The notes: generated by a model not told the origin, from the sequence alone. DNA of 64,000 bases from Anaerolineales bacterium (GCA_034432445.1 DAOUBX010000204.1:2143-66142), one strand, 5' to 3'. Shown: positions 4,115 to 48,580, numbered from the stretch's first letter. Translations and numbers: made by a program.

Positions 4115-5809
4115 ATGACCCCTGCGTCGCATCGCGTCAACCCACTCACCTATCTGCTCTACGCCCTGCCGCTGGCCTTTATGGCCATCTTCTACTTTTA
4201 CCCTTTGCTGAGCATCCTGGGCTTGGGGCTGGCGCCAGAAGGGAAGGTGGACCTGAGCGGTTTTGCGGCGTTGGTGGAGCGACCCTACCTCGGTCGCGTC
4301 CTGTGGTTCACCGCGTGGCAAGCGCTGCTTTCCACGGCGCTCACGCTTCTGCTGGGCTTGCCCGCGGCATACGTGTTTGCCCACTACGAGTTTCCCGGCA
4401 AGAACTTGCTGCGCGCGCTGACGACCATCCCTTTCGTCATGCCTACAGTGGTCGTGGCTGCGGCCTTTGCCACGCTGCTGGGGCCACGCGGCCTGCTCAA
4501 CCAGTGGCTCATGGCTGCGTTCGGCCTGGCCCGTCCCCCCATCGACCTCCTGTACACGATCTGGATTATCCTCCTGGCGCACGTGTTCTACAACACCACG
4601 GTGATCGTGCGCATCGTTGGCGACTTCTGGGCCAACCTAGATCCACACCTCGGCGAGGCGGCTGCCATCCTGGGTGCCCATCGTGGCCGCGTGCTGCGCG
4701 AGATAACCTTGCCGCTGTTGCTCCCCTCGATCATCGCCGCGGGTCTGCTGGTGTTCCTCTTCTGCTTCACCAGCTTTGGCGTGATCCTGATCCTAGGGGG
4801 GCCGCGCTACGCCACGCTGGAGGTAGAGATCTACTACCAGGCAGTGAACCTCTTCAACCTGCCGCTGGCGGCGGCGCTGTCGTTGGTGCAACTGGCGATA
4901 ACCTTCAGCGTCATGGTGGTCTACACACGTCTGCAGGCGCGCGCCTCGCTGCCGCTCAACTTGCGGCCGCGCGCCAGCATTGCACGACGACCGGCCAACT
5001 GGCGGGAATGGCTGGCCGTGGGCGCGGTCATCACCCTGCTCTCGGCCGTCCTGCTGACGCCGCTCTTCGCCCTGGCCTGGCGCTCCGTGACCCTGGGGGC
5101 AGGTCCGCCCTCGCTGCGCTACTACCAGGCACTTACCGTCAACCGCAGTCAGGACATCTTCTTCGTGCCGCCGGTACAGGCCATCCGCAACTCGCTGGCG
5201 TTTTCTGTGCTGGCCACGGCGCTGGCCCTGGTCCTGGGGCTGATCAGCAGCTACATGCTCATCGCGCCGGGCCGCGTGGCCGGCCGGCTGGCGCGCTGGT
5301 TGGACCCGATCCTGCTGCTGCCGCTGGGCACCTCAGCGGTCACCCTTGGCCTGGGCTATATCGTCGCCCTCGACGCGCCACCGCTGAACTTGCGCACCTC
5401 GCTGGCCCTCATCCCGCTGGCCTATACGCTGATTGCTATGCCCTTCGTGGTGCGCTCGCTGCTGCCGGCCCTGCGCAGCCTCGATCCCGGCTTGCGCGAG
5501 GCAGCTGCAGTGCTAGGCGCTGCACCGACGCGCGTCATCCGCGAGGTCGATCTGCCGATTGTTGGCCGCGCGGTGCTGGTGGCCGGCGTGTTTGCCTTCA
5601 CGATCAGCCTGGGCGAGTTCGGCGCCACGCTGCTGCTCTATCAGCCGCGCTTTCCGACCATGTCGGTGGTGATCTATCGCGCCTTGAGCCAGCCCGGACT
5701 GCTCAACTACGGCCAGGCTCTGGCCATGAGCACGCTGCTGATGCTGGTGTGCATTGGTGGCCTATTGGTCATTGAGCGCTTTCGCGTCGGCGGTGTGGGA
5801 GAGTTCTAA
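4115..5809 (+). CDS. ABC transporter permease, two fused BPD_transp_1 domains (ThiP-like thiamine permease)
   Basis: The ORF track gives 4061..5809. ATG at 4115 (MTPASHRVNPLTYLLYALPLAF...) is the likely start. About 12 TM segments with two EAA-like loops. Confidence 0.8.
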   Translation: MTPASHRVNPLTYLLYALPLAFMAIFYFYPLLSILGLGLAPEGKVDLSGFAALVERPYLGRVLWFTAWQALLSTALTLLLGLPAAYVFAHYEFPGKNLLRALTTIPFVMPTVVVAAAFATLLGPRGLLNQWLMAAFGLARPPIDLLYTIWIILLAHVFYNTTVIVRIVGDFWANLDPHLGEAAAILGAHRGRVLREITLPLLLPSIIAAGLLVFLFCFTSFGVILILGGPRYATLEVEIYYQAVNLFNLPLAAALSLVQLAITFSVMVVYTRLQARASLPLNLRPRASIARRPANWREWLAVGAVITLLSAVLLTPLFALAWRSVTLGAGPPSLRYYQALTVNRSQDIFFVPPVQAIRNSLAFSVLATALALVLGLISSYMLIAPGRVAGRLARWLDPILLLPLGTSAVTLGLGYIVALDAPPLNLRTSLALIPLAYTLIAMPFVVRSLLPALRSLDPGLREAAAVLGAAPTRVIREVDLPIVGRAVLVAGVFAFTISLGEFGATLLLYQPRFPTMSVVIYRALSQPGLLNYGQALAMSTLLMLVCIGGLLVIERFRVGGVGEF

Positions 5810-6915
5810 TGCCTTTGCTAGAAGTTCGCGGCGTAACCAAGTCCTTTGGCTCGACGCCGGTGTTGCACGCCATTTCATTCGCCGTAGAGGCGGGCGAGAT
5901 CTTGTGTCTGCTCGGTCCGTCGGGATGCGGCAAGACCACCCTGTTGCGCATTGTCGCCGGGCTAGAACATGCCGATGCTGGCGCGGTGTTGTGCGACGGG
6001 CGGGACTTGGCGGCCACGCCGGCGCACCGCCGGGGCTTCGGTCTGATGTTCCAGGACTACGCGCTTTTCCCGCACAAGAGCGTGGCCGAGAACATCGCCT
6101 TTGGACTGCGCATGGCCGGGCAGGATCGGCCAACCATTCAGCAACGCGTTGCCGCCATGCTCGACCTCGTCAATCTGACAGGATACGACGAGCGCCGCGT
6201 GCACGAGCTTTCCGGCGGCGAGCAACAACGGGTGGCCCTGGCGCGCAGCCTGGCGCCTAGCCCGCGGCTGCTGATGCTCGATGAGCCGCTGGGCTCGCTG
6301 GACCGCACTCTGCGCGAGGAACTGATGACCGAGCTGCGGCGCATCCTCAAACAGATCGGCATGACGGCGCTTTACGTCACCCACGACCAACAAGAGGCCT
6401 TTGCCATCGCCGATCGGGTGTTGATCCTCAACGCCGGCCGCATCGAGCAGCAAGGAACGCCCCTTGCGGTCTACCGGCGACCGGCCAGCCGCTTCGTCGC
6501 GCACTTCTTAGGCATGCACAATCTCTTGCCCGGGGTGCTGCTGACGGATGCCCCGCAACCGGCGGTTGCCACGCCCATTGGAACGCTGGCTTGCGCCGGC
6601 TGCAGCGAGCCGATCGCAGCCGGCGCTGCGGTCACCGTGCTGGTGCGGCCGGATGCTGCGGCGCTCTTGCCGGCCGCCAGCCAATCCTCTGGGCCCAACT
6701 GTGTACAAGGCGCGCTGGCAGACTTCTCCTTTCGCGGCAGCCAGGTCAAGCTAACGGTTGACTGCGGCTTGCACACTCGCCTGACCTTCGAGCTGCCAGG
6801 CGCCAGCGCCAGCGCACTGCCGGCGCTCGGCCAGCCTGTAGCGCTCTTCCTTGATCAAGAAGGGGTTACGCTGCTGCCGGCTGATGAGCCACAGGCCTCG
6901 ACCATTCAGCAATAG
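5809..6915 (+). CDS. ABC transporter ATP-binding protein (ThiQ/PotA-like, with C-terminal TOBE-like domain)
   Basis: Walker A LLGPSGCGKTT, ABC signature LSGGEQQRVALARSL, Walker B LLMLDEP. Start overlaps the permease stop. Confidence 0.85.
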   Translation: MPLLEVRGVTKSFGSTPVLHAISFAVEAGEILCLLGPSGCGKTTLLRIVAGLEHADAGAVLCDGRDLAATPAHRRGFGLMFQDYALFPHKSVAENIAFGLRMAGQDRPTIQQRVAAMLDLVNLTGYDERRVHELSGGEQQRVALARSLAPSPRLLMLDEPLGSLDRTLREELMTELRRILKQIGMTALYVTHDQQEAFAIADRVLILNAGRIEQQGTPLAVYRRPASRFVAHFLGMHNLLPGVLLTDAPQPAVATPIGTLACAGCSEPIAAGAAVTVLVRPDAAALLPAASQSSGPNCVQGALADFSFRGSQVKLTVDCGLHTRLTFELPGASASALPALGQPVALFLDQEGVTLLPADEPQASTIQQ

Positions 6916-17331: not shown

Positions 17332-19557
17332 CTAAGCGCGCGACCGACGCTCTTCCCAAAACGCCTGCAACGCAACGAAGGGCAGCGCCGGCGTTACATC
17401 CCCTTTGCGCCCGCTGTTCCAGGTGATGATCAGCTCGCGCTTGGCGCGCGTGATGCCGACATAGAGCAGGCGCAGGCGCTCACGCACGTAGTCCAACCGC
17501 GCCTGTTCGGTGGCCTCCCCCTCCACATACCGATCCCGCTTTCCGGCAACCGTGTCCAGCTGCGCCAGCGCTTCAGCCTCCAAGTTGAGGCTGTCACGCA
17601 CGTACCACTTTTCGCTGATGTAGTGGTCGAAGGCCTGCCCCGAGGGGAAGTCGTAGCTGTTGGCCGACATCAGATAAACACGATCCCACTCCAATCCCTT
17701 GGCTTTGTGCATGGTAGCAACGACCACCTTGCCCTTGTACTTCTCGGGGTTGAAGCCCAGATCATCGTCGCTGAAGCCTAAAAAGCGTCGTTGGTTGTTG
17801 GCGATCACCAGCAGCTCGGCGTTGAGCTGCGGCAGCCGCCAATCGGGGTGGGCATCGCTGGCTTGGCGCAGCAAGACCGCCAGCTTGTGCGCCATGGCCA
17901 GATCGGCCGGGGCCGTAAACAGGTCCTGCGCCAAGGTCAACACCGCCTGGTCGATGGGCAGCAAGATGGCCCCTTGCCAGCGCTGGACCAGGCTACGAAA
18001 CTGCTCCAACGAGGCGCGACTGTCGTCATCTAGCTCCTGCTCTGCCAGCCAGTCGTGGTAGGGCCGCGGCCAGAGGTACTCCTCGACCTGCCGGCAACGC
18101 TTCAGCAGGCTAGCCAACGCCTCGACACGCTCCCACGCCTCTGGATCCTCACGCTCGCCGCGGCGCCAAACGCGATAGGCGGTAGCCAACCGGCCGGCCG
18201 ACGCCGGTTCGGCCAGGCACTTCAACACGTTGACCAACGAGCCCGTGGCCAGGCGCGTTGCAGCTGCGCTGCGCAGCAGGCTGTCCACCACCTCTAGCTC
18301 GCGACGTCGCAGCTCATCGACAAGCTCGAAGCCGCGCGTGTTGCGCGGCACGAGCACAGCCACCGTCAGATCCTGATGCGCCGGCAGCCAGCGTGCCAGC
18401 GAATCGGCCACCGCCTTCAGCTCTGCGGCTGGGGTATACTTCGTCGCTACCAGGTGAATGGCTGCGGGATCGTCGGGCGGGTTAGGCTGGGGATCGTCGG
18501 GCTCGGTGGGCAGGATGTAAGGCGGGGTAAGCGCTCGCCGCGCCTCCGGCCGCGGGTGCTCGTGGATAGTCCACGCCATGAGGTGGTTGGCCAGGTCGAT
18601 GATGCTCTGCGTAGAACGGCCGGAATGGGGCAACTCGCGGCGCACGACACCTTTCTCCACCAGAAAGTCAAGCAGAAACTGCGGACTGGCCGCGGTGAAG
18701 GTCTCGTAGATAGCCTGGTTAGGGTCGCCGACGCGCACCCAGTTGCCCTCGGCGCCGACCAACAAGCGCAAGATCTGCTCCTGCAAGCGGCTGCTGTCCT
18801 GCGCCTCGTCTTCCAAGATGTAGGGCCAGCGTTGACGCAGCCGCGCCAGCAACTGATCATCGAGGGTCAAAGCTCGCAGCGCCAGACGGATCAAGTCGTC
18901 GAAGTCCACCGCGCCGCGGTAAGCCAGCGCACGTTGGTAGTCGGCGTACACGGCGCCGGCCATAGCCGCCAGGGGCAGCGGCGCATGCAGTGCGGCCAAA
19001 TGTTCGCCCAGGGCTTCCGGGGTCAACTGGTTGTCCTTGGCGTAGCGGACAGCGCTCAGCGCAATCTCCTTCACCAGCTCCGGCAACACATCGCGGCGCA
19101 CCCAATCTAGGCGCTTGGGCTCGAGCGCCTGGTCGAGGAAGTCGTCCAAGGCGCCAGGATGGCCCTTTAGCCAGGCGCCGGCCACATCGTTGCGAATCTC
19201 ATCGGCTAGGTGCTCGTCGACGATCTGAAAATCGTCGGCCAGGCCCACCAGCGCTGGACGCTCGCGCACGATGTCGTGCGCCAGGCCATGCAGCGTGCGC
19301 ACACGATAACCCAGGTAGGGCAGCAGCCCGCGGCGCTTCACCAAAGCGCCGATGCGCTCGGCAAAGTTGTCTACGGCCGAGTTGACCAGGGTAACCACCA
19401 ACACTTCTTGGTCGTTGGCCAGCTCGCCGCGCGCGATGATCTGCGCCGCCAGCAAGGAGAGCGTCAAGGTCTTGCCGCTGCCGGGCACAGCCGAGATGCC
19501 CATCTTGCCGTGGGTGTAGGTGAGGATGTCGGCCTGGCTGGGTCGTGGCTGGAACAT
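17332..19557 (-). CDS. UvrD/Rep/PcrA-family SF1 DNA helicase
   Basis: 741 aa. Motif I AVPGSGKTLTL, motif II ILEDEAQDSS, plus further helicase motifs. Gene symbol not assignable. Confidence 0.8.
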   Translation of the reverse strand: MFQPRPSQADILTYTHGKMGISAVPGSGKTLTLSLLAAQIIARGELANDQEVLVVTLVNSAVDNFAERIGALVKRRGLLPYLGYRVRTLHGLAHDIVRERPALVGLADDFQIVDEHLADEIRNDVAGAWLKGHPGALDDFLDQALEPKRLDWVRRDVLPELVKEIALSAVRYAKDNQLTPEALGEHLAALHAPLPLAAMAGAVYADYQRALAYRGAVDFDDLIRLALRALTLDDQLLARLRQRWPYILEDEAQDSSRLQEQILRLLVGAEGNWVRVGDPNQAIYETFTAASPQFLLDFLVEKGVVRRELPHSGRSTQSIIDLANHLMAWTIHEHPRPEARRALTPPYILPTEPDDPQPNPPDDPAAIHLVATKYTPAAELKAVADSLARWLPAHQDLTVAVLVPRNTRGFELVDELRRRELEVVDSLLRSAAATRLATGSLVNVLKCLAEPASAGRLATAYRVWRRGEREDPEAWERVEALASLLKRCRQVEEYLWPRPYHDWLAEQELDDDSRASLEQFRSLVQRWQGAILLPIDQAVLTLAQDLFTAPADLAMAHKLAVLLRQASDAHPDWRLPQLNAELLVIANNQRRFLGFSDDDLGFNPEKYKGKVVVATMHKAKGLEWDRVYLMSANSYDFPSGQAFDHYISEKWYVRDSLNLEAEALAQLDTVAGKRDRYVEGEATEQARLDYVRERLRLLYVGITRAKRELIITWNSGRKGDVTPALPFVALQAFWEERRSRA

Positions 19558-37638: not shown

Positions 37639-37866
37639 ATGCAAGTAACCATTCACGAAGCAAAAACCAATCTTTCTCGGCTGATCCAGGCGGCTTTGGC
37701 CGGCGAAGAAGTCGTCATTGCCAAGGGCAAACAACCCCTGGTCAAGCTAGTCGTTGTGCCTGAAGCGCGCCAGCAGCGCAGAGTCGGCGGCGCCGAAGGT
37801 GTGGTGCTGTTCATGGCTGATGACTTCAACGCGCCACCGGAGGATTTCGGAGAGTACATGCCGTGA
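37639..37866 (+). CDS. Type II antitoxin, Phd/YefM family
   Basis: 75 aa. MQVTIHEAKTNLSRLIQAALAGEEVVIAKGKQPLVKLV is the Phd/YefM signature. Overlaps the downstream PIN gene by 4 nt. Confidence 0.8.
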   Translation: MQVTIHEAKTNLSRLIQAALAGEEVVIAKGKQPLVKLVVVPEARQQRRVGGAEGVVLFMADDFNAPPEDFGEYMP

Positions 37867-38246
37867 AGCTGCTCTTGGACACGCAAGTCTTTCTCTGGGT
37901 GATCAACAACCGGAAGCTCAGCCAGCGCGCCAGAGCCGCATTTCTCGACACTAGCAACCAACTCTTTCTGAGCGCAGCCAGCTATTGGGAGATCTGTATC
38001 AAGCAAAATATCGGTAAGCTGGTTTTGGCTGAGGACTGGCAACAGAGCTTTGAGCGTGAGATGCGAGCCAATGACATTCGCTGGTTGCCCATTGAGAAGT
38101 CGCACTGCCAGGCCATTGTCGAGCTGCCCTGGCTTCATCGCGATCCCTTCGACCGCTTGTTGATCGGCCAGGCGCTGCAAGAAGGTATGACGATCTTGAC
38201 TGCTGACGAGCAGATTCAGCAATATGACGTTGCGACCATCTGGTAG
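37863..38246 (+). CDS. Type II toxin, PIN-domain VapC family
   Basis: 127 aa. LLLDTQVFLW ... acidic residues of the PIN fold (D6, E43-like, D-rich C-terminus DPFDRLLIGQA). Confidence 0.8.
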   Translation: MKLLLDTQVFLWVINNRKLSQRARAAFLDTSNQLFLSAASYWEICIKQNIGKLVLAEDWQQSFEREMRANDIRWLPIEKSHCQAIVELPWLHRDPFDRLLIGQALQEGMTILTADEQIQQYDVATIW

Positions 38247-39789: not shown

Positions 39790-41631
39790 TCAAGCCGCCC
39801 GGAGCTGGCGGATAGCCTGCGGCAGGCGGCTGAGCAAATCGCCGGCTGTGACGCCGGCCTCACCGAGGTCGCGGCGGGCCAGCTCGCCAGCCAAGCCGTG
39901 CAGATAGCCGCCGAGCACTGCGGCCTCGAACGGCGCAACGCCCTGCGCCAACACGCCGACGATAGCGCCGGCCAGCACATCGCCGCTGCCGGCCGTGGCC
40001 AGGGCCGGGTTGGCGAAGGGCAGCACCACCGCCTGCCCGTCGGGCGCGGCGATCACGGTGTAGGCGCCCTTGAGCAGCACGATCTGGCGCCATTCGGCCG
40101 CCTTGCGCCGAGCCAAGCCCAGCCGGTCGCGGCGCACCTCGGCCGTGGAGCAGCCGCACAGCCGCGCCATCTCGCCCGGGTGGGGCGTGAGGATGCTGCC
40201 GGCCGTTGCTTGTTCGTGCCAGCGCTCCACCTGCGCCAACGCGTTGAGCGCGTCGGCGTCGATCACCAGCGGCAGGCGCAGCTCGGCCAGGGTGGTCGGG
40301 GCCAGCGAGGCGCCGCGGTTGCTGCTCATGATGCCAAAGCCTTGTTCGCGGTGACCCTGTTCAGCAACGGGGGCGGCCGCAGGCTGCGCCGCAACGCCGC
40401 TCAGAAAACCGGCCCCTTTCTTGCGCTCGCTGCCGACTCCTAACAGCCGATGAACAAACTGCACGGCCTCCTTTTCTTGGGTCAGGCCGGGGCCCACCAA
40501 CAGCGCAGCATAGCCGGCTGCGTTTTCCAGCAAGACCTTGACGGCGTCCGGGCTGAGCACGCCCATCGTCTCGGGCAGGAGCAGCCACGTGGACTCCACC
40601 AGCCCGGCGGCTAGAATCGGGTGCAACGAGCCGGCCACGCCCAGCGTGACCAGTCCTGCGCCCACGCGGTAGGCCGCGGCCGCAGCCAGATGCGCCGCGC
40701 CGGTGTAGTTGGCCGAGCCGGCCACGATCATGGCCTTGCCAAAAGTGCCCTTGTGCGCGTCGAGCGGCCGCGGCGGCAGCAAGGTCTTCGCCCATGCCGG
40801 TGTGGCCAGTTGCACCACAACGTCTTCGGCCAGGGCGGGGTCGGTGCCGATGTCAGCCACCTCTAGCCGGCCGCAGGCTGCCGGCCCGTCGCCAACAAAA
40901 TGCCCCACCTTGGGGTTGGCAAAGGTCACGGTCAGGTCAGCGCGCAGCGCAGCCGGGTCTAGCCAACCCGTATCGCAGTTCAGCCCGCTGGGGCAGTCCA
41001 CGGCCACCACCTGCGGCAACGCTCGTTCGGTATACAGCGGCAGATGAAGAAAGTCGAAATCCGCCACAGGCTGCAACGCCAAGGCTGCGCTGTGCGAGTT
41101 AATCGGTTCGGCCTCCGCCGCGTCCAGTTCATCGAGCGCTGCTTCCTGCTGCGCGACACGGTCGGCCAGCCCGTGTCGCACGGCTGCTAGCAGCTCGGCC
41201 AGCGCCCCGCTGATGGGCCGGGAGACGCCGGTGCCCAGCAACGCGTCGATCACCACGTCGGCGTCCAGCAGCAGCTCTTGCAGCTGGGCCAGCTCGGGGT
41301 CTTGCTCGGCGTGAACGATGGGAATCCGCAGCCGGCGCAGCGCGTCGTAGTTGGCGTCGCCCTCGGCGTTGCGCTTCCAGCAGTAGACCGTCACTGACCG
41401 CTTGGGATCCCACTGATGCAGATAGCGCGCCGCAACGAGGCCATCGCCGCCGTTGTTGCCCGGCCCGGCCAACACCAGCACGCCGCCCTCGCTGTCCCAC
41501 GGGTGCATGTGGCGCAGCACGGCAGCGGCCACAGCCCGACCGGCCAGCTCCATCATGGCGTCGTAAGAATGTCCGGCCGCATCGGACGCCCGCTCGATGC
41601 GCACCATCTCGGCCACAGTTACGATTTTCAT
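39790..41631 (-). CDS. nnr: Bifunctional NAD(P)H-hydrate repair enzyme Nnr (YjeF-N epimerase + ADP-dependent dehydratase), with about 90-aa insertion
   Basis: N-terminal MKIVTVAEMVRIERASDAAGHSYDAMMELAGRAVAAAV...AGPGNNGGDGLVAARYL. C-terminal carbohydrate-kinase-like dehydratase domain (...GSGDVLAGAIVGVLAQG). Confidence 0.85.
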   Translation of the reverse strand: MKIVTVAEMVRIERASDAAGHSYDAMMELAGRAVAAAVLRHMHPWDSEGGVLVLAGPGNNGGDGLVAARYLHQWDPKRSVTVYCWKRNAEGDANYDALRRLRIPIVHAEQDPELAQLQELLLDADVVIDALLGTGVSRPISGALAELLAAVRHGLADRVAQQEAALDELDAAEAEPINSHSAALALQPVADFDFLHLPLYTERALPQVVAVDCPSGLNCDTGWLDPAALRADLTVTFANPKVGHFVGDGPAACGRLEVADIGTDPALAEDVVVQLATPAWAKTLLPPRPLDAHKGTFGKAMIVAGSANYTGAAHLAAAAAYRVGAGLVTLGVAGSLHPILAAGLVESTWLLLPETMGVLSPDAVKVLLENAAGYAALLVGPGLTQEKEAVQFVHRLLGVGSERKKGAGFLSGVAAQPAAAPVAEQGHREQGFGIMSSNRGASLAPTTLAELRLPLVIDADALNALAQVERWHEQATAGSILTPHPGEMARLCGCSTAEVRRDRLGLARRKAAEWRQIVLLKGAYTVIAAPDGQAVVLPFANPALATAGSGDVLAGAIVGVLAQGVAPFEAAVLGGYLHGLAGELARRDLGEAGVTAGDLLSRLPQAIRQLRAA

Positions 41632-42239
41632 TGCAATGTTGGGTGAGTGATCTTTGGATGCAGTTCCGCTAACCGTAATAGGCAGCGATCTAGGCTGGCG
41701 GCGCGTCGTCTGGCAGCTTCAATGTTCCAGCGTTGTGCTACGAAGGCTTGCATCTCGCTGACATAACCTGGCCCCACGACAGCCGAAATCCCTTGCTGGG
41801 GAACAAGTGCTTGTGCAGCCTTACGGCGGCTGCGCCGGGCGAGATTGACAAGGGTCTGCTTGGGATCGGCCAGGCGCTCCGGGTCATCAGGCACAACTGC
41901 GCCTGAGATGCCAAGAAGACTCCCGATTCCTAGGTGGTCGGCTAACAGCCAGCTTTCGATCTCGTTGACGACCACGCGTAGCAGGAGTTTTGAACTCCGA
42001 TTGGGCAACCAGGCCGGTAGCACCGCCGGTGGGCAATCGAGGCCGGTATCCATGAAGTCCACCAGCATCAGCATGGGATTGCCGTAGCTGGCTCGAACAT
42101 TGAACCCGGCCACTTTCTGACGGAGATACGACACGCCTTGCTTGCCGAACGTTGTACCCGCTTGATGGCCCGTGTGGTGGATCAAGCGCCGTGCAACAGC
42201 TTCGTCCAGCGGTCCTTCGACCAGAATATCGATAACCAT
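41628..42239 (-). CDS. DUF4276-like protein (predicted Toprim-like partner of the upstream ATPase)
   Basis: 203 aa. N-terminal MVIDILVEGPLDE (conserved Glu in a Toprim-like strand) and downstream acidic cluster MLMLVDFMDTGLD. Start shares 1 nt with the ATPase stop. Stop overlaps the nnr start. Confidence 0.55.
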   Translation of the reverse strand: MVIDILVEGPLDEAVARRLIHHTGHQAGTTFGKQGVSYLRQKVAGFNVRASYGNPMLMLVDFMDTGLDCPPAVLPAWLPNRSSKLLLRVVVNEIESWLLADHLGIGSLLGISGAVVPDDPERLADPKQTLVNLARRSRRKAAQALVPQQGISAVVGPGYVSEMQAFVAQRWNIEAARRRAASLDRCLLRLAELHPKITHPTLQ

Positions 42240-43372
42240 CAGCCGAACTCAAGGGCAAGCTGTTCGACGTTCTGGGGAGCCGCCTTGGGCATCAGCACAT
42301 CGGCCACCGTTAGCCCAGCTCGTAATGCCTGGCGGTCTGCCTCATCGACTGGTGCAAACACCGTGCCATCGGAGCTTGGTTCCAGACGCAGAACTTCCTC
42401 GCTGCCGATGCTCGGATCTGACAGCAAGTCTTCGGAATGGGTCGAGATGATCATCTGTCGGGGTGCCTTGAGTTGACGGTTCATGCGGTGGAGCACTGCC
42501 GGTAGGCGACGCACAATCTCCGGATGTAGCGAGATCTCTGGCTCCTCTAGCAACAGGGGACCTGATCCATCGAAAGCTGTCCAAAGCAGCCCCAGTAGTC
42601 TGAGTGTGCCATCTGAGAATTGGCTCTCGTTTTGTCTGGCTGCGTGGGGGCGCCAATGGGAGTAACCGCCTTCCAAGTGAGGCACGCCTGCGTCATCCAT
42701 GACCGCTCTCAACTCTGTGAGTTGCGGCACAGCAATCCGAAGCGCTTGAGAAATCTTGCGTAGACGAGCATCGCGCGTCTTGACAGGTGTTTGCCATAAT
42801 CGCAGCAGCAGGTCGCGGCCGTAAGGATCATTCGACACTGGCAGAGGCGAAAACCCGCGCGGATCACGTACGACCTGCGGCAGCAGGTGCTGGTAGGAAA
42901 TCGACTTGAAGAAGTCAGCCAGTTCCCGAAAGTCCTGGTTGGCGGAAATCTGCTGCAATGCTGTTTGGGTCAAACGAACTGGATCGCGCTGATCCTGCTG
43001 ATCAGGCCGATCAAGGATTTTGATGCTGTTCCTCCATACTGTTTCGCTCTTAACCGTGGCACGCCGCTGTTGGTCCTGGTTGAATACCAGTCGGTATTTC
43101 CAATCAGCGATTCCTGGATCCGCCACGTCGACTTCGATCAAGATGTCGCTGTGGCGCGTGGCCGACAGACAGCGAACTGTCGAAACGCCGCCGCGTCCAT
43201 CGATAGCCTTTTCCAAACCATCCAAGGCCACATCGCGCAAAAAGCGAAAAGCATCCAGCAAATTGGACTTCCCCGAGGCGTTGGGGCCGATGATAAATAC
43301 CCGAAGTTGTAAGGGAGCCTCGACGTTCTTGAAGTTCTTCCAGTTGCGCAATTTGATGCGGCTAAAATGCAT
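42239..43372 (-). CDS. AAA_21/ABC-type ATPase (OLD/AriA/GajA-like ATP-binding protein)
   Basis: Start at MHFSRIKLRNWKNFKN, preceded by GGAGGAGGG RBS. Walker A IIGPNASGKSNLLDA. C-terminal H-loop ISTHSEDLL. Long coiled/insert region between them as in SMC-like AAA_21 proteins. Confidence 0.75.
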   Translation of the reverse strand: MHFSRIKLRNWKNFKNVEAPLQLRVFIIGPNASGKSNLLDAFRFLRDVALDGLEKAIDGRGGVSTVRCLSATRHSDILIEVDVADPGIADWKYRLVFNQDQQRRATVKSETVWRNSIKILDRPDQQDQRDPVRLTQTALQQISANQDFRELADFFKSISYQHLLPQVVRDPRGFSPLPVSNDPYGRDLLLRLWQTPVKTRDARLRKISQALRIAVPQLTELRAVMDDAGVPHLEGGYSHWRPHAARQNESQFSDGTLRLLGLLWTAFDGSGPLLLEEPEISLHPEIVRRLPAVLHRMNRQLKAPRQMIISTHSEDLLSDPSIGSEEVLRLEPSSDGTVFAPVDEADRQALRAGLTVADVLMPKAAPQNVEQLALEFG

Positions 43373-43393
43373 AGCTCCCTCCTCCAAAGGTTG

Positions 43394-44238: not shown

Positions 44239-45960
44239 ATGCTACGCACAGTTCCAGAGACGATCAACGAAGAAGTCGACCTCTACATTCGCACCTACTA
44301 CTCACTGTTGCGCAGCACGCAAGCCATCCGGGTGCGTTCGCTGGAGGAAACGCACGCCGGCATGCGCGCCAGCTTGCACCCCAACGCCGACGACCCAGAG
44401 CCCGACATCTCGGCGTTCACCTATGCTGCGGCGCGACTGCCGTCCTGCATGCCGCAGGTCAAGCTCGTGCTACTGGGGCAGTCGGACGAGGTGTTCCTGC
44501 GCCGCGGCCGCGTGGACATCAGCCGCTGGCAGCGGGTCTATGCTGCGGCGCGGCGGCGCAAGATGTTCTTCGACGGCCAGGATCGGCTGGCCTGTTACAT
44601 CTCCAGCGTCAGCGACATCGACGACCTGATCCCCATCTTGACAGCCTATCAGATCGAGTGGAACAAGCTGCACTATCGCTTCAGCACATCAGATGCTGCT
44701 GCACGGCTGCGGAGGTTGGCTGGGCCGGTCGAGCTGGCAGCGCAAGACCTGGAGGCGATCCGCGCCGCACTCGGCTTGGAAGTGGAGCCATTCCAGCGGT
44801 TGTGCCAGGCCTGGCGCAAAGACTTGAGCGATAGCTTCCGCCACCTGGCCGAGCACCCCAGCGATCTGAGCCTGAACCTGTTGGCGGGCTCGGTGGCCGA
44901 CTATCGCCAGGCGGTACAGGCCTGGTGGAGCAGCGTGGCCGAGCAGGCCAACCTGGGGCCGCTCTATGATCGCTCGATCTACTTCGTCTCCAGCAATCCC
45001 CACGCCATCCCAAACCTGCTCAGCGGCTTTGCGCGGCTGCACCGTGATGCCCTGCTCACTTTTCTGTATCAGCACAATCCGGAGGGTTTGTGGGATGAGT
45101 GGCAGCGGCTGGCAGATGAAGGCAACGCGGCGGCGCAAGAAAACCTGCTGTACTACGTCCAGCGCAACTTTCTGCAGGCCGACCCTGCGCGCCAGCAGGA
45201 GTGGCTGGCCCACGAGGCGGCCCTAGGAATCCACCGCATCGACAACCCCCACTACCTGGACGTGGGCGCGCAAGTCATCGAGCTGGGGCGGCTGGACCCA
45301 GCCCTTTTCGACCCGCGTCTGCGCATGCCGGGCTTGGAAAAGCTGCGCCGCAGCCAAGACTTGTTGGTCAACGTCGATTACCCGCTGGGCATGGCGGCTT
45401 ACCACCTCTTCTCGCAGATCTCCGCCGCCGTGCCCGACCTGCTGGGGGTGTACATCATGGGCAAGGCCGCCACGCTCAACGGCCGCGTGGGCGACGTGAT
45501 GATCCCCAACGTGATCTACGACGAGCATTCCAAGAACACCTTTTTGTTCAAGAACTGCTTCGAGGCGGCAGACGTGGCGCCGTATCTGCAATACAGCACG
45601 GTCTTTGACAACCAGAAAGGCGTCACTGTGCGCGGCACCTTCCTGCAGAACCGCCAGTTCATGGCCGTCTTCTACAAAGAGGGCTACACCGACATCGAGA
45701 TGGAGGCCGGGCCGTACCTGAGCGGTATCTACGAGGACATTTACCCGCAGCGCTACCCGATTAACGAGATCGTCAACCTGTTCATCAACGCGCCCTACGA
45801 CATCGGCGTGCTGCACTACGCCTCGGACACGCCCTACAGCCGGCGGCAGAGCCTGCTCAGCAAGAGCTTGAGCTACTTCGGCGTCGACGCCACCTACGCT
45901 GCCAGCATCGCGATCATGCGGCGGATTTTGCAGGTGGAACTGGCGCGATTGGGTGGATGA
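44239..45960 (+). CDS. AMP nucleosidase-like protein (N-terminal regulatory-like domain + C-terminal PNP_UDP_1 phosphorylase-fold domain)
   Basis: The C-terminal region LLVNVDYPLGMAAYHLFSQISAAVPDLLGVYIMGKAATLNGRVGDVMIPNVIYDEH and later DIEMEAGPYL / VLHYASD align motif-for-motif with E. coli Amn (LVNIGVGPSNAKT...PDVWLMIGHCGGL...GDYVLAHAYLRDDH; IDMESATIA; LCVSD). 573 aa versus 484 aa for Amn. Confidence 0.5.
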   Translation: MLRTVPETINEEVDLYIRTYYSLLRSTQAIRVRSLEETHAGMRASLHPNADDPEPDISAFTYAAARLPSCMPQVKLVLLGQSDEVFLRRGRVDISRWQRVYAAARRRKMFFDGQDRLACYISSVSDIDDLIPILTAYQIEWNKLHYRFSTSDAAARLRRLAGPVELAAQDLEAIRAALGLEVEPFQRLCQAWRKDLSDSFRHLAEHPSDLSLNLLAGSVADYRQAVQAWWSSVAEQANLGPLYDRSIYFVSSNPHAIPNLLSGFARLHRDALLTFLYQHNPEGLWDEWQRLADEGNAAAQENLLYYVQRNFLQADPARQQEWLAHEAALGIHRIDNPHYLDVGAQVIELGRLDPALFDPRLRMPGLEKLRRSQDLLVNVDYPLGMAAYHLFSQISAAVPDLLGVYIMGKAATLNGRVGDVMIPNVIYDEHSKNTFLFKNCFEAADVAPYLQYSTVFDNQKGVTVRGTFLQNRQFMAVFYKEGYTDIEMEAGPYLSGIYEDIYPQRYPINEIVNLFINAPYDIGVLHYASDTPYSRRQSLLSKSLSYFGVDATYAASIAIMRRILQVELARLGG

Positions 45961-48580
45961 AATGCTGCTCCTGCTTGTTAGCGTCTCTGTGCTCTTTATC
46001 GGTTCTGGCCTGCTCGCTCACTGGCTGCACCGCCGCGGCCGGCCGGACTGGCGCCAGGATGTGCTGGCGGCCGGGCTGTTGGCGCTGGCCTGCCTCGGCT
46101 ACTTCTGGCGCATTCTCCTCGGCGACGCCTGGATGCCGGCCGACGGCGGCGACCTGATCTCCTTCCTCTGGCCAACGTATCGCTTTGCGGCGGAGAGTCT
46201 GCGCAACGGCCAGCTACCTCTCTGGAACACGCACCTCTACGGCGGCGCGCCACACGTCGCCGACATCCAGGCCGGCTTCCTCTACCCGGTCAACCTGCTG
46301 CTGTTCTTCCTCCTGCCCGATTTCAGCACCAAGGCCATGCAGACGCTCAGCATCCTGCACTTCTGGTGGGCCGGGCTAGGCATGTACGTCTTCTTGCGCA
46401 GCCTGCGCTGGGGGGCGGAGCGGCAGGAGCAGGTGAGCCGGCCGGCCAGCCTGCTGGCTGGGATCGCCTTCGCCTTCTCTGACCCGTTCTGGGTGCACTT
46501 CGGCAACCTGAACTTCATCGCCGTGGCCAGCTGGCTGCCATGGGTGATGGCGTGCTACATGCGGGCGTTGGAAGAGGGAAAGGAAGGAAAAGAGGGAAAG
46601 GAGGGAAAGAAGGGGGAGGATAGACAAGTAGATAAGGGAGCGGGTAGACAAGTGGACAAGGAGGCAAGTAGACAAGGCGAGGGTGCAGAGAACGACGAAG
46701 AGCGTTCACCGATCACCGTTCACCGATCACCGATCACCGTTCACCGTTCCCTGGCCTGGGCTGCGCTGGCTGGGCTGTTGCTCGGTATCGGCACCCTCGC
46801 CGGACACATCCAGGCCACGTTGTTCATCGGCATGGCCGCTGCGATCTACGGCGCGTTCTGGGTGTTGGGTGGAGCGAGCGCGCCCTACTCCCGAGCAGGG
46901 GGAGGTCGAGAGAGAGTCGTGCGCTATCTCGCCAGGCTGGCCGTCCTGGCCGCTGTCGCTTTCTTGATCGCCGCGCCGGTGCTCTTGCCCGCGCTGCAGT
47001 TGACGCAGTACACCACGCGCGCCAACTGGAGCTATCAGGAGACCGTCGGCTATTCCCTGTCGCCGGCGCAGTGGATCGGCTTTGTCGTCCCCGGCTTCTT
47101 CGGCCGCGGGCCGCAGCTACACTGGGGCCTTTGGCCGCGCGTGGAAGTGGGCTATCTGGGCATTCTGCCGCTCGCGCTGGCCGCGCTGGCGCTCCTGGCG
47201 CGGCGAGAGCGCCACATGTGGGCGCTGACCGGGTTGAGCGGAGTGGCTTTTCTCCTCTCCTTGGGCATCTACAGCATCGTGCACGGCTGGTTGACACTGC
47301 TGCCCGGCTTTGATCTGTTGCGCGCGCCGGCGCGCTTTGCCCTGCTGGTGGACTTCGGCCTGGCTGCGCTGGCCGGCGTGGGCTTGCACGTGCTGCTCAG
47401 CTCGCTCAGCGACGGCGCCGCCTGGAAAGCTGTTACCCGACTGGCCGATGGCCTAGGCTGGCTGGCCAAGGCCGTTGTGGCTATTGTCGTACCGTTGACC
47501 TTTGCTGCGCTGCTCTTGGCCCAAGACAAGGACCCCACGGTCTACCTGCGGGTGGCCGTGGCCGCCATTGCCGTCATGCTGTTCGTAGGCTTTCTGCTGG
47601 CGAGCTGGGCGTTGGTTGCGGCGCGCCGCAACGGCTGGGCGCAGCCGGGCACGCTGGCTGTGCTGGCCATTAGCCTGGTCTTTCTGGACCTCGCCAGCAC
47701 CGGCGCCTACAACGACCTGGGCGGCCAAGACCCCGCGCGCACCTTCGACCAGCCGGCGATCGCAGCCTTCTTGGCGCAAGAGAACGAGCCCTTCCGCATC
47801 GATGCCCGCACCGACATCGATCAGCTCTGGCAGCCCAACACGGGGCTGCTTTACGGCTTTGATGACGTGTGGGGCGTGGTCAACCCCTCGATCCTCGCCG
47901 CCTACGAGCGCTATTGGGAGGGCATGGGCAGCCGCTCCAGCCGGCTCTACGACTTCCTCAACGCCAAGTACGTCATCGCGCGCAAGGATGTCGTGCTGGA
48001 CTGGGAGAAGTTCGAGCTGGCCTTCGACGGCGACCCTGACCTGAACGTCTATCGCAACCGCGCCGCCTTGCCGCGCGGCCAGATCATCCACGAGGTACTG
48101 GCGGTGGACACGCCCGAGGCGGCGTGGGACGCCGTGCACGCCACAGGCTTCGATCCTGGCCGCCAGGTTGTGGTGGAAGACACCGGCCAGGGCGCGCTAT
48201 GGATGCCGCCGACGGGCGCGCCCAGCCCTGGCGCCGACGAACACGTCACCTGGCTTAAGCGCACGCCCACGCAACTGGTGTTGGAGGTGACGGCGGCCGC
48301 GCCAGGCTATCTCGTGCTGAGCGAGGCCTGGTATCCCGGTTGGCAGGTCCAGATCGGCGCCGATGGCCGGTGGAGCGACCTACCTGACGCCGTCGTTCGC
48401 GCCAACACGGCCTTCCAAGCTGTGCCCTTGACCCGCGCCGGCGCGTATCAGGTGCGTCTGCGCTTTGCCCCTCTGCCCTGGCGCGTGGGTTTGTCTCTTA
48501 GCGTTGTCAGCGTGCTCGGCCTTGTCATTGTGGCCGGCGCGCTGCGGCGGCGGCGCCCTCTACACCGTCTGGACGTATGA
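45953..48580 (+). CDS. YfhO-family membrane protein (putative glycosyltransferase of cell-envelope glycopolymers) with in-frame low-complexity insertion
   Basis: 875 aa. The N-terminus and multi-TM architecture match YfhO. It overlaps the upstream gene by 8 nt. Residues about 205-265 (EEGKEGKEGKEGKKGEDRQVDKGAGRQVDKEASRQGEGAENDEERSPITVHRSPITVHRS) are encoded by tandem DNA repeats. Confidence 0.75.
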   Translation: MDEMLLLLVSVSVLFIGSGLLAHWLHRRGRPDWRQDVLAAGLLALACLGYFWRILLGDAWMPADGGDLISFLWPTYRFAAESLRNGQLPLWNTHLYGGAPHVADIQAGFLYPVNLLLFFLLPDFSTKAMQTLSILHFWWAGLGMYVFLRSLRWGAERQEQVSRPASLLAGIAFAFSDPFWVHFGNLNFIAVASWLPWVMACYMRALEEGKEGKEGKEGKKGEDRQVDKGAGRQVDKEASRQGEGAENDEERSPITVHRSPITVHRSLAWAALAGLLLGIGTLAGHIQATLFIGMAAAIYGAFWVLGGASAPYSRAGGGRERVVRYLARLAVLAAVAFLIAAPVLLPALQLTQYTTRANWSYQETVGYSLSPAQWIGFVVPGFFGRGPQLHWGLWPRVEVGYLGILPLALAALALLARRERHMWALTGLSGVAFLLSLGIYSIVHGWLTLLPGFDLLRAPARFALLVDFGLAALAGVGLHVLLSSLSDGAAWKAVTRLADGLGWLAKAVVAIVVPLTFAALLLAQDKDPTVYLRVAVAAIAVMLFVGFLLASWALVAARRNGWAQPGTLAVLAISLVFLDLASTGAYNDLGGQDPARTFDQPAIAAFLAQENEPFRIDARTDIDQLWQPNTGLLYGFDDVWGVVNPSILAAYERYWEGMGSRSSRLYDFLNAKYVIARKDVVLDWEKFELAFDGDPDLNVYRNRAALPRGQIIHEVLAVDTPEAAWDAVHATGFDPGRQVVVEDTGQGALWMPPTGAPSPGADEHVTWLKRTPTQLVLEVTAAAPGYLVLSEAWYPGWQVQIGADGRWSDLPDAVVRANTAFQAVPLTRAGAYQVRLRFAPLPWRVGLSLSVVSVLGLVIVAGALRRRRPLHRLDV
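46570..46750. repeat. Composite tandem-repeat block inside yfhO: (GGGAAAG)n, (TAGACAAG)x4, (GTTCACC/GATCACC)x7
   Basis: GAAGAGGGAAAGGAAGGAAAAGAGGGAAAGGAGGGAAAGAAGGGGGAGG, then GATAGACAAGTAGATAAGGGAGCGGGTAGACAAGTGGACAAGGAGGCAAGTAGACAAGG, then GTTCACCGATCACCGTTCACCGATCACCGATCACCGTTCACCGTTCC. The purine richness is very atypical for this genome. Confidence 0.7.

Follow-up and report, generated by a model that had tools for sequence, protein, structure and literature searches.

Several bacterial systems combine an ABC ATPase with a Toprim-like protein. HEC-01 consists of two adjacent, co-oriented genes for an ABC ATPase and a small TOPRIM-like protein; it was discovered embedded in Hma (helicase-methylase-ATPase) systems, and HEC-01B shares the metal site of BpOLD (Payne et al., 10.1101/2024.01.29.577857). 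In MADS of P. aeruginosa, the AAA_21-type ABC ATPase MAD3 is followed by the DUF4276-family Toprim-like protein MAD4. MADS defence needs both mad3 and mad4, and cells survive loss of the MADS methylase only if mad2 or mad3 is lost as well. MADS3-4 is listed among the ABC ATPase + TOPRIM systems (PMC11464382). PARIS is split into the ATPase AriA and the DUF4435 protein AriB, and classes 1-2 of the OLD family (P2 Old, YbjD, BpOLD; GajA) carry ATPase and Toprim in one polypeptide. Here, a stretch of 64,000 nucleotides from an Anaerolineales bacterium (GCA_034432445.1, DAOUBX010000204.1:2143-66142; hereafter the window) was analysed, which encodes on its minus strand an ABC ATPase and, directly downstream, a small partner protein. 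This pair is probably a two-gene HEC-01-type module consisting of an ABC ATPase and a putative metal-dependent Toprim-like nuclease, that is, a split relative of OLD and a candidate phage defence system. Its general design is like that of PARIS, AbiL and MADS MAD3/MAD4. A sequence-only reading of the window had already described a split OLD/PARIS-like module at this place, and the coordinates and the single nucleotide shared by stop and start codon are as it had given them:

42239-43372, minus strand: HEC-01A-type ABC ATPase (AAA_21/AAA_15 class), 377 aa from the ATG at 43372
41628-42239, minus strand: HEC-01B-type small protein, putatively Toprim-like and of a divergent DUF4276 branch, 203 aa
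42239-42241, minus strand: TGA stop of the ATPase gene and ATG start of the partner gene with one shared A (TGATG)

The two proteins match the HEC-01A and HEC-01B hidden Markov models (HMMs) of PADLOC, respectively, over their full length. Among the many HMM subfamilies that make up HEC-01, the pair belongs to PDLC04180/PDLC04194. The ATPase matches PDLC04180 (HEC-01A) with E 9.3e-144 (residues 1-374 of 377, model positions 1-380 of 382), and the partner matches PDLC04194 (HEC-01B) with E 4.6e-54 (residues 3-197, model positions 6-201 of 204). HEC-01B models are also matched by 49 of 49 homologues of the small protein. The remaining defence ATPase models of PADLOC and NCBIfam, namely AriA, AbiLi, mad3, GajA, Old and PtuA, fit the ATPase far more weakly. 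This classification supports the abortive-infection or defence module that the sequence-only reading had proposed, a plausible function that is presumed from relationship. The A/B names of PADLOC seem to be swapped in places: the ATPase also matches PDLC04144, named 'HEC-01B' (E 3.1e-19), and PDLC04143, named 'HEC-01A', is matched by 15 of the 49 small-protein homologues, which matters for automated calls.

The ATPase contains a Walker A motif (GPNASGKSN, residues 29-37), a signature-like FSDGT (252-256), a Walker B motif (LLLEEPE, 273-279) and an H-loop (STHS, 310-313). All four are kept in an alignment of 75 homologues, including the GxNxSGKSN and STHS motifs that had been pointed out from sequence. 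In Pfam the protein matches AAA_21 (E 2.6e-32) and also AAA_15. Its AlphaFold model (pLDDT 86.5) shows a compact ABC ATPase that lacks a long coiled coil. In Foldseek searches, the best matches of this model were PtuA from Septu and retron systems, followed by Rad50/SMC heads and GajA, with E-values of 1e-11 to 1e-13; when sequences are compared, GajA and an OLD nuclease are the closest relatives of the ATPase among solved chains. Together with the HEC-01A/B matches and the alignment of the partner to the OLD-type Toprim described below, these relationships bear out the proposed split OLD/PARIS-like architecture. PtuA is the best structural match (E ~1e-13, TM 0.54-0.56) and is likewise part of a two-gene ATPase + nuclease system; however, its effector PtuB is an HNH and not a Toprim protein, and the NCBIfam PtuA model reaches only 29.5 bits on the ATPase against a cutoff of 500 bits.

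PARIS resembles the pair in its split ATPase and Toprim, in the AAA_15/21 class of the ATPase, in its tightly coupled genes and in a plausible sequester-and-release mode of action. Its AriA model matches the ATPase (E 1.9e-30), but this model is a generic AAA_21-like one and the match is far weaker than that of HEC-01A. Furthermore, the small protein matches neither AriB (PADLOC) nor DUF4435 (Pfam), and PARIS rides phage satellites. With the OLD family the pair shares the catalytic logic of ABC ATPase and Toprim. It differs from OLD classes 1-2 in being encoded by two open reading frames (ORFs), and the helical C-terminal half of the partner has no detectable similarity to OLD proteins. The ATPase also matches the MAD3 models of PADLOC (mad3, E 1.3e-19) and NCBIfam (E 6.3e-17). 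These matches span only parts of the ATPase, the best stretch listed being the N-terminal P-loop region, and the score against NF047739 (MAD3) is 61.8 bits compared with an equivalog cutoff of 420 bits. The small protein matches no mad4 model. Near the pair, no mad1, mad2, mad5-8 or methylase gene was found, whereas mad6-8 and the methylase are mandatory in MADS.

In contrast to its clear HEC-01B match, the partner itself matches no Pfam family, neither at E <= 0.01 nor at E <= 10, and likewise no NCBIfam family. PF14103 (DUF4276) is matched by 36 of 49 homologues of the partner that are 49-88% identical to it (best E 5.1e-10), and because of these matches the partner can be regarded as a divergent branch of the DUF4276 family. 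The DUF4276 label of the sequence-only reading was therefore right in substance, although the direct Pfam match that it implied is missing. The acidic cluster described as DxD-like reads D61-F-M-D64 (VDFMD) and has DxxD spacing. In a profile of 86 partner sequences, E8, D61, C69 and W97 are invariant and D64 and E95 are kept in at least 90%; E93 is nearly invariant in the narrower alignment of 49 sequences. The AlphaFold model of the partner (pLDDT 94.8) consists of four alternating strand-helix units followed by the helical C-terminal half. The protein begins with MVIDILVEGPLDE. E8, located in LVEG, stands at the end of predicted strand 1 (residues 2-7), and D61/D64 directly follow strand 3.

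For profile-profile comparison, an OLD-type Toprim profile was built from the PF20469-annotated alignment of YbjD, a class-1 OLD protein of E. coli that served as Toprim seed and whose C-terminal domain matches the Toprim structures of BpOLD and XccOLD. A broad partner profile was obtained by adding 85 representatives from a search of 1.84 billion proteins. Aligned with hhalign, the two profiles gave a probability of 80.6% and an E-value of 1.3e-5 over 137 columns. In this alignment, E8 falls on the Glu of LVEGETE, D61/D64 on DGD (with one inserted residue) and E93/E95 on DxE. DUF4276 and RloB have been placed in the Toprim superfamily (PMC12065111), and an RloB-like protein is the best match of the partner model among the viral models of BFVD (E 2.9e-3, probability 1.0). 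Toprim homology of the partner is therefore likely, and the HHpred-type check proposed for the small protein did give a Toprim relationship, so that the idea of a Toprim-like nuclease gained support. Searches of solved structures gave little: partner sequence profiles had no match in the PDB at E <= 10, OLD and GajA structures gave no significant sequence or Foldseek match, and Foldseek of the partner model against the PDB returned no Toprim protein, only generic Rossmann-like and CheY-like matches, none of them significant.

When one genome per species was scanned, 80 loci were found, distributed over Chloroflexota, KSB1, Acidobacteriota, Pseudomonadota, Nitrospirota, Desulfobacterota, Actinomycetota and other phyla. 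In 72 of them, a full-length ATPase gene lies directly upstream of the partner gene, and the estimated spacing is -7 to +21 nt in all 72. Three further loci end too near the partner gene for the ATPase to be judged, and five give only a partial ATPase match (three at a contig edge, two in the interior). The identities of ATPase and partner homologues to the window proteins correlate with r = 0.92. ATPase and partner are thus one unit with obligate pairing and joint evolution. This subfamily alone comprises about 2,500 clusters at 50% identity (E <= 1e-3) in many phyla. A conserved third gene was considered and rejected; the commonest neighbour family reaches only 9 of the 80 loci. At one metagenomic locus (L004:6861-8591), a copy of the pair with 64% identity lies in an island rich in genes for TIR, ThsB-TIR and caspase-like proteins; its ATPase gene is split into ORFs of 249 and 98 aa and is probably decaying. 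Partial ATPase matches in the interior of a contig also occur at L044 and L071. In several Blastocatellia/Pyrinomonadaceae (L027-L042; Acidobacteriota and others), the pair occupies a second lineage-specific fixed insertion site between genes for a zinc alcohol dehydrogenase and an AP_endonuc_2/xylose-isomerase-like protein, with an OMP decarboxylase gene upstream of the zinc alcohol dehydrogenase gene.

Several observations weigh against a phage defence module with a Toprim nuclease. The HEC-01 representative of its discoverers protected against none of the phages tried (10.1101/2024.01.29.577857), and for the PDLC04180/PDLC04194 subfamily a defence function is presumed from its relatives. 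The family is absent from the 50,697 phage records searched and occurs in just 1 of 72,556 plasmid records; in this it also differs from the satellite-borne PARIS. At 74 other loci, the genes directly beside the pair mostly have metabolic or housekeeping roles, and the module of the window lies within a housekeeping operon and not in a defence island. Regarding the Toprim assignment, the second acidic motif has DxxD instead of the canonical DxD spacing. With the narrow partner profile, hhalign gave lower probabilities of 17.5% against the Toprim profile and 31% against YbjD alone, the motifs remaining in register, and the comparison with the single P2 Old sequence gave a spurious alignment. 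On the other side, a cold-seep HEC-01 representative gave E. coli B protection, of unquantified extent, from at least one of the phages T7, T5 and T4, and HEC-01 is among the 12 most abundant types of defence system in cold-seep genomes (PMC12881386).

The relationship to Hma and MADS leads to a different explanation, according to which the pair would be a restriction-like effector of the Hma/MADS type, either orphaned or with a distant partner, that cuts unmethylated DNA and whose methyltransferase is encoded elsewhere in the genome. HEC-01 was after all found inside Hma systems (10.1101/2024.01.29.577857), and in MADS the ATPase + DUF4276 pair is required for defence. Restriction-type neighbours form a minority: large N6_N4 DNA methylases, some of them fused to Mrr_cat, adjoin the pair in 6 of 80 loci, and ResIII, Mrr_cat and HsdR also occur. 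However, most loci have no methylase neighbour, and the window pair lies outside any Hma or defence locus. Neither a DNA methyltransferase nor another defence system is among the matches listed for the other window ORFs of at least 120 aa (the first 25 of 56 Pfam families), and the remainder of the window is ordinary chromosomal sequence. The MAD3 score far below its cutoff and the missing MAD4-type match of the small protein also speak against this explanation, which we consider quite unlikely.

The surroundings of the pair in the window bear on how it is expressed and on what it might be used for. Its flanks contain genes for a membrane protein (mem237), DUF6909, nnr and an M24 peptidase (Pfam); nnr encodes an NAD(P)HX epimerase/dehydratase with Pfam matches to YjeF_N and Carb_kinase. 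Further features of the pair are the following:

43375-43385, minus strand: Shine-Dalgarno-like GGAGGAGGGAG, 3 nt upstream of the ATPase ATG, read from the sequence
41628-41631, minus strand: 4-nt ATGA overlap of the TGA stop of the partner gene and the ATG start of nnr

A mechanical ORF list extends the ATPase gene to a TTG at 43387, and the homologues begin at the ATG at 43372. The junction of ATPase and partner genes reads ...GGC TGATGG..., and the single A common to stop and start indicates that the two are probably translationally coupled. The ATGA overlap with nnr had not been noted in the sequence-only reading. Upstream, mem237 stops just 21 nt before the ATPase ATG. The only promoter-like site on the minus strand was found at 44086-44057, just upstream of mem237; between mem237, the ATPase gene, the partner gene and nnr, neither a promoter-like nor a credible terminator-like site was found on this strand. 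The pair is therefore probably embedded in, and co-transcribed with, a mem237-nnr transcription unit. DUF6909 is encoded at 44239-45960 (plus strand) by a full-length gene (Pfam E 1e-219) that is divergent from the mem237 operon and syntenic in Caldilineales relatives.

This arrangement would fit a housekeeping accessory for DNA repair or metabolism that works together with nnr in NAD(P)HX repair. Such a role is suggested by the ATGA overlap and the 21-nt gap to the upstream gene, by the resemblance of the ATPase to Rad50, SMC and RecF heads, and by the order ATPase-partner-nnr, which nine related loci share with the window, also where a different gene lies upstream (as in L005 and L009). The distribution of the pair points the other way. 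It adjoins nnr in one Caldilineales clade only, in which DUF6909, mem237, ATPase, partner, nnr, mem554 and M24 are syntenic with the window; the other 74 genome loci all lack nnr as a neighbour. When metagenomes were scanned with nnr, three further occupied sites were found, together with seven contigs from close relatives that lack the pair and in which mem237 and nnr directly adjoin (gaps of 0-89 nt). Neighbour-joining trees were made for mem237 and for nnr, and in these the occupied sites are interleaved with the empty ones. Because of the empty sites in relatives and this interleaving, the pair is an accessory element with repeated loss or gain at a single site, and not a housekeeping partner of nnr. 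A universal position beside nnr, which according to the sequence-only reading would have spoken against a defence module, was thus not found. The third-position GC content (GC3) of the pair is moreover about 20 points below that of the operon, and a housekeeping function with nnr appears very improbable despite the purifying selection described below.

At one empty site (L099:5912-6001), the 89-nt mem237-nnr spacer is an imperfect palindrome, GATGAATGATGAACG...CGTTCATCATTCATC, located exactly at the insertion position of the pair; this palindrome may represent a terminator, a small repeat element or the scar of an excision. A mobile element as carrier of the pair was considered and rejected: no tRNA gene is present in the 64-kb window, no target-site duplication is visible at the insert junctions, and the family is nearly absent from phage and plasmid records.

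Selection on the pair was assessed by comparison with syntenic relatives, the comparison of dS between pair and flanks being noted for L003, L005, L006, L007, L013, L092 and L104:

ATPase gene: dN/dS 0.04-0.09, dS 1.3-1.9
partner gene: dN/dS 0.07-0.16, dS 1.3-1.9
nnr: dN/dS 0.23-0.36, dS 0.5-0.8
mem237: dN/dS 0.12-0.24, dS 0.5-0.8

As their dN/dS is low, both genes of the pair are clearly functional and under strong purifying selection, which is tighter than that on nnr and as such is a further point for a joint function with nnr. In the same relatives, the dS of the pair exceeds that of the flanking genes mem237 and nnr 2-3-fold. The pair has a GC3 of about 61% compared with 80-88% in the flanks, a difference that recurs in the window and in all syntenic relatives. 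At 57 of 60 loci, the AT content of the pair is higher than that of its surroundings, the median difference being 7 points. The excess of dS together with the low GC3 may reflect either an intrinsic composition bias of the family, which would bias dS, or horizontal replacement of alleles at a fixed site.

The same data are relevant to the proposal that the pair is a selfish addiction module of the toxin-antitoxin type, in which the nuclease would be a toxin that is checked by the ATPase and the genes would be kept because imbalance kills the cell. At most loci, the pair is a solitary two-gene insert among housekeeping genes, its genes appear to be translationally coupled, and it is AT-richer than the host almost throughout. 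Pfam describes AAA_21 as a family of 'putative AbiEii toxin, Type IV TA system', and the lethality of methylase deletion in MADS unless mad2 or mad3 is deleted indicates that such modules can be self-toxic. However, clean empty sites interleaved with occupied ones mean that loss has been tolerated repeatedly, and although addiction modules thrive on plasmids and phages, the family is nearly absent from both. The very low dN/dS over a long divergence fits a function that benefits the host. Addiction and abortive-infection defence can both hold, but pure selfishness of this kind seems unlikely to account for the pair.

A working scheme can be proposed for a HEC-01-type defence module, for which the domain identities, intact catalytic motifs, pairing, selection, accessory status and low GC of the pair are established. 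ATPase and nuclease would be made in coupled amounts and would form a complex, in which the ATPase would act as sensor or regulator and keep the nuclease inactive. A phage-derived cue or a change in nucleotide state might then release or activate the nuclease. Subsequently, the nuclease would cut DNA, as do OLD and Gabija, or tRNA, as does PARIS, thereby halting phage replication, possibly at the cost of the cell.

The window contains a further toxin-antitoxin pair, which had been noticed as a neighbour of the module:

37639-38246, plus strand: Phd/VapC toxin-antitoxin pair (PIN E 5e-16; PhdYeFM_antitox E 1.2e-6; 4-nt ORF overlap)

With 28.7 bits, the PhdYeFM_antitox match narrowly misses the gathering score of 29.8, and a VapB match in NCBIfam (E 1.7e-6) is below its cutoff. 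The pair is real and lies 3.4 kb from the module, but its position is incidental and has no link to the HEC-01 pair. A functional link was rejected: the toxin-antitoxin pair was not found beside HEC-01 elsewhere, and only the Phd-like gene persists in two relatives. There it is located between mem554 and M24 (L006:8971-9183 and L003:12667-12882; 80% and 64% identity); no VapC homologue was detected at this position in L006 or L003, and the toxin partner appears to vary or to have been lost. The idea that the window holds a further ATPase paralogue or defence system was likewise rejected, as the matches were local or lone and had no defence partner beside them. They comprise an ABC-transporter-type ATPase at 5809-6915 (plus strand) with local PADLOC matches to mad3 and mad8, and a lone UvrD-type helicase of 741 aa at 17332-19557 (minus strand) that matches many GajB models; both are likely false positives for defence annotation. 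At 45953-48580 (plus strand), a multi-pass membrane protein of 875 aa is encoded that has a low-complexity insertion derived from short tandem DNA repeats at 46574-46749 (KEGKEGKEG..., RQVDK twice, SPITVHR twice).

The architecture of the pair has already been catalogued under HEC-01, MADS3-4 and the trees of the PARIS family, and the locus adds no new kind of system. What is unusual is only the insertion within a housekeeping operon and the polymorphism of occupied and empty sites. In this Caldilineales clade, the module might have been domesticated into the mem237-nnr operon, so that its expression or activity might depend on NAD(P)H damage or on metabolic state, beside or instead of phage defence. 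The apparently coupled translation with nnr and the purifying selection tighter than that on nnr suggest such a tie, which we nevertheless hold to be highly unlikely; if true, domestication would join an OLD-like ATPase/Toprim module to nicotinamide-nucleotide repair. HEC-01 is abundant and widespread, yet the data on its protective effect conflict. With the same site occupied or empty in close relatives, purifying selection and persistent compositional foreignness, the locus represents a natural experiment, and these features argue for a functional, dispensable and self-contained unit outside defence islands. The PDLC04180/PDLC04194 subfamily may help to solve how Toprim effectors of the DUF4276 type act.

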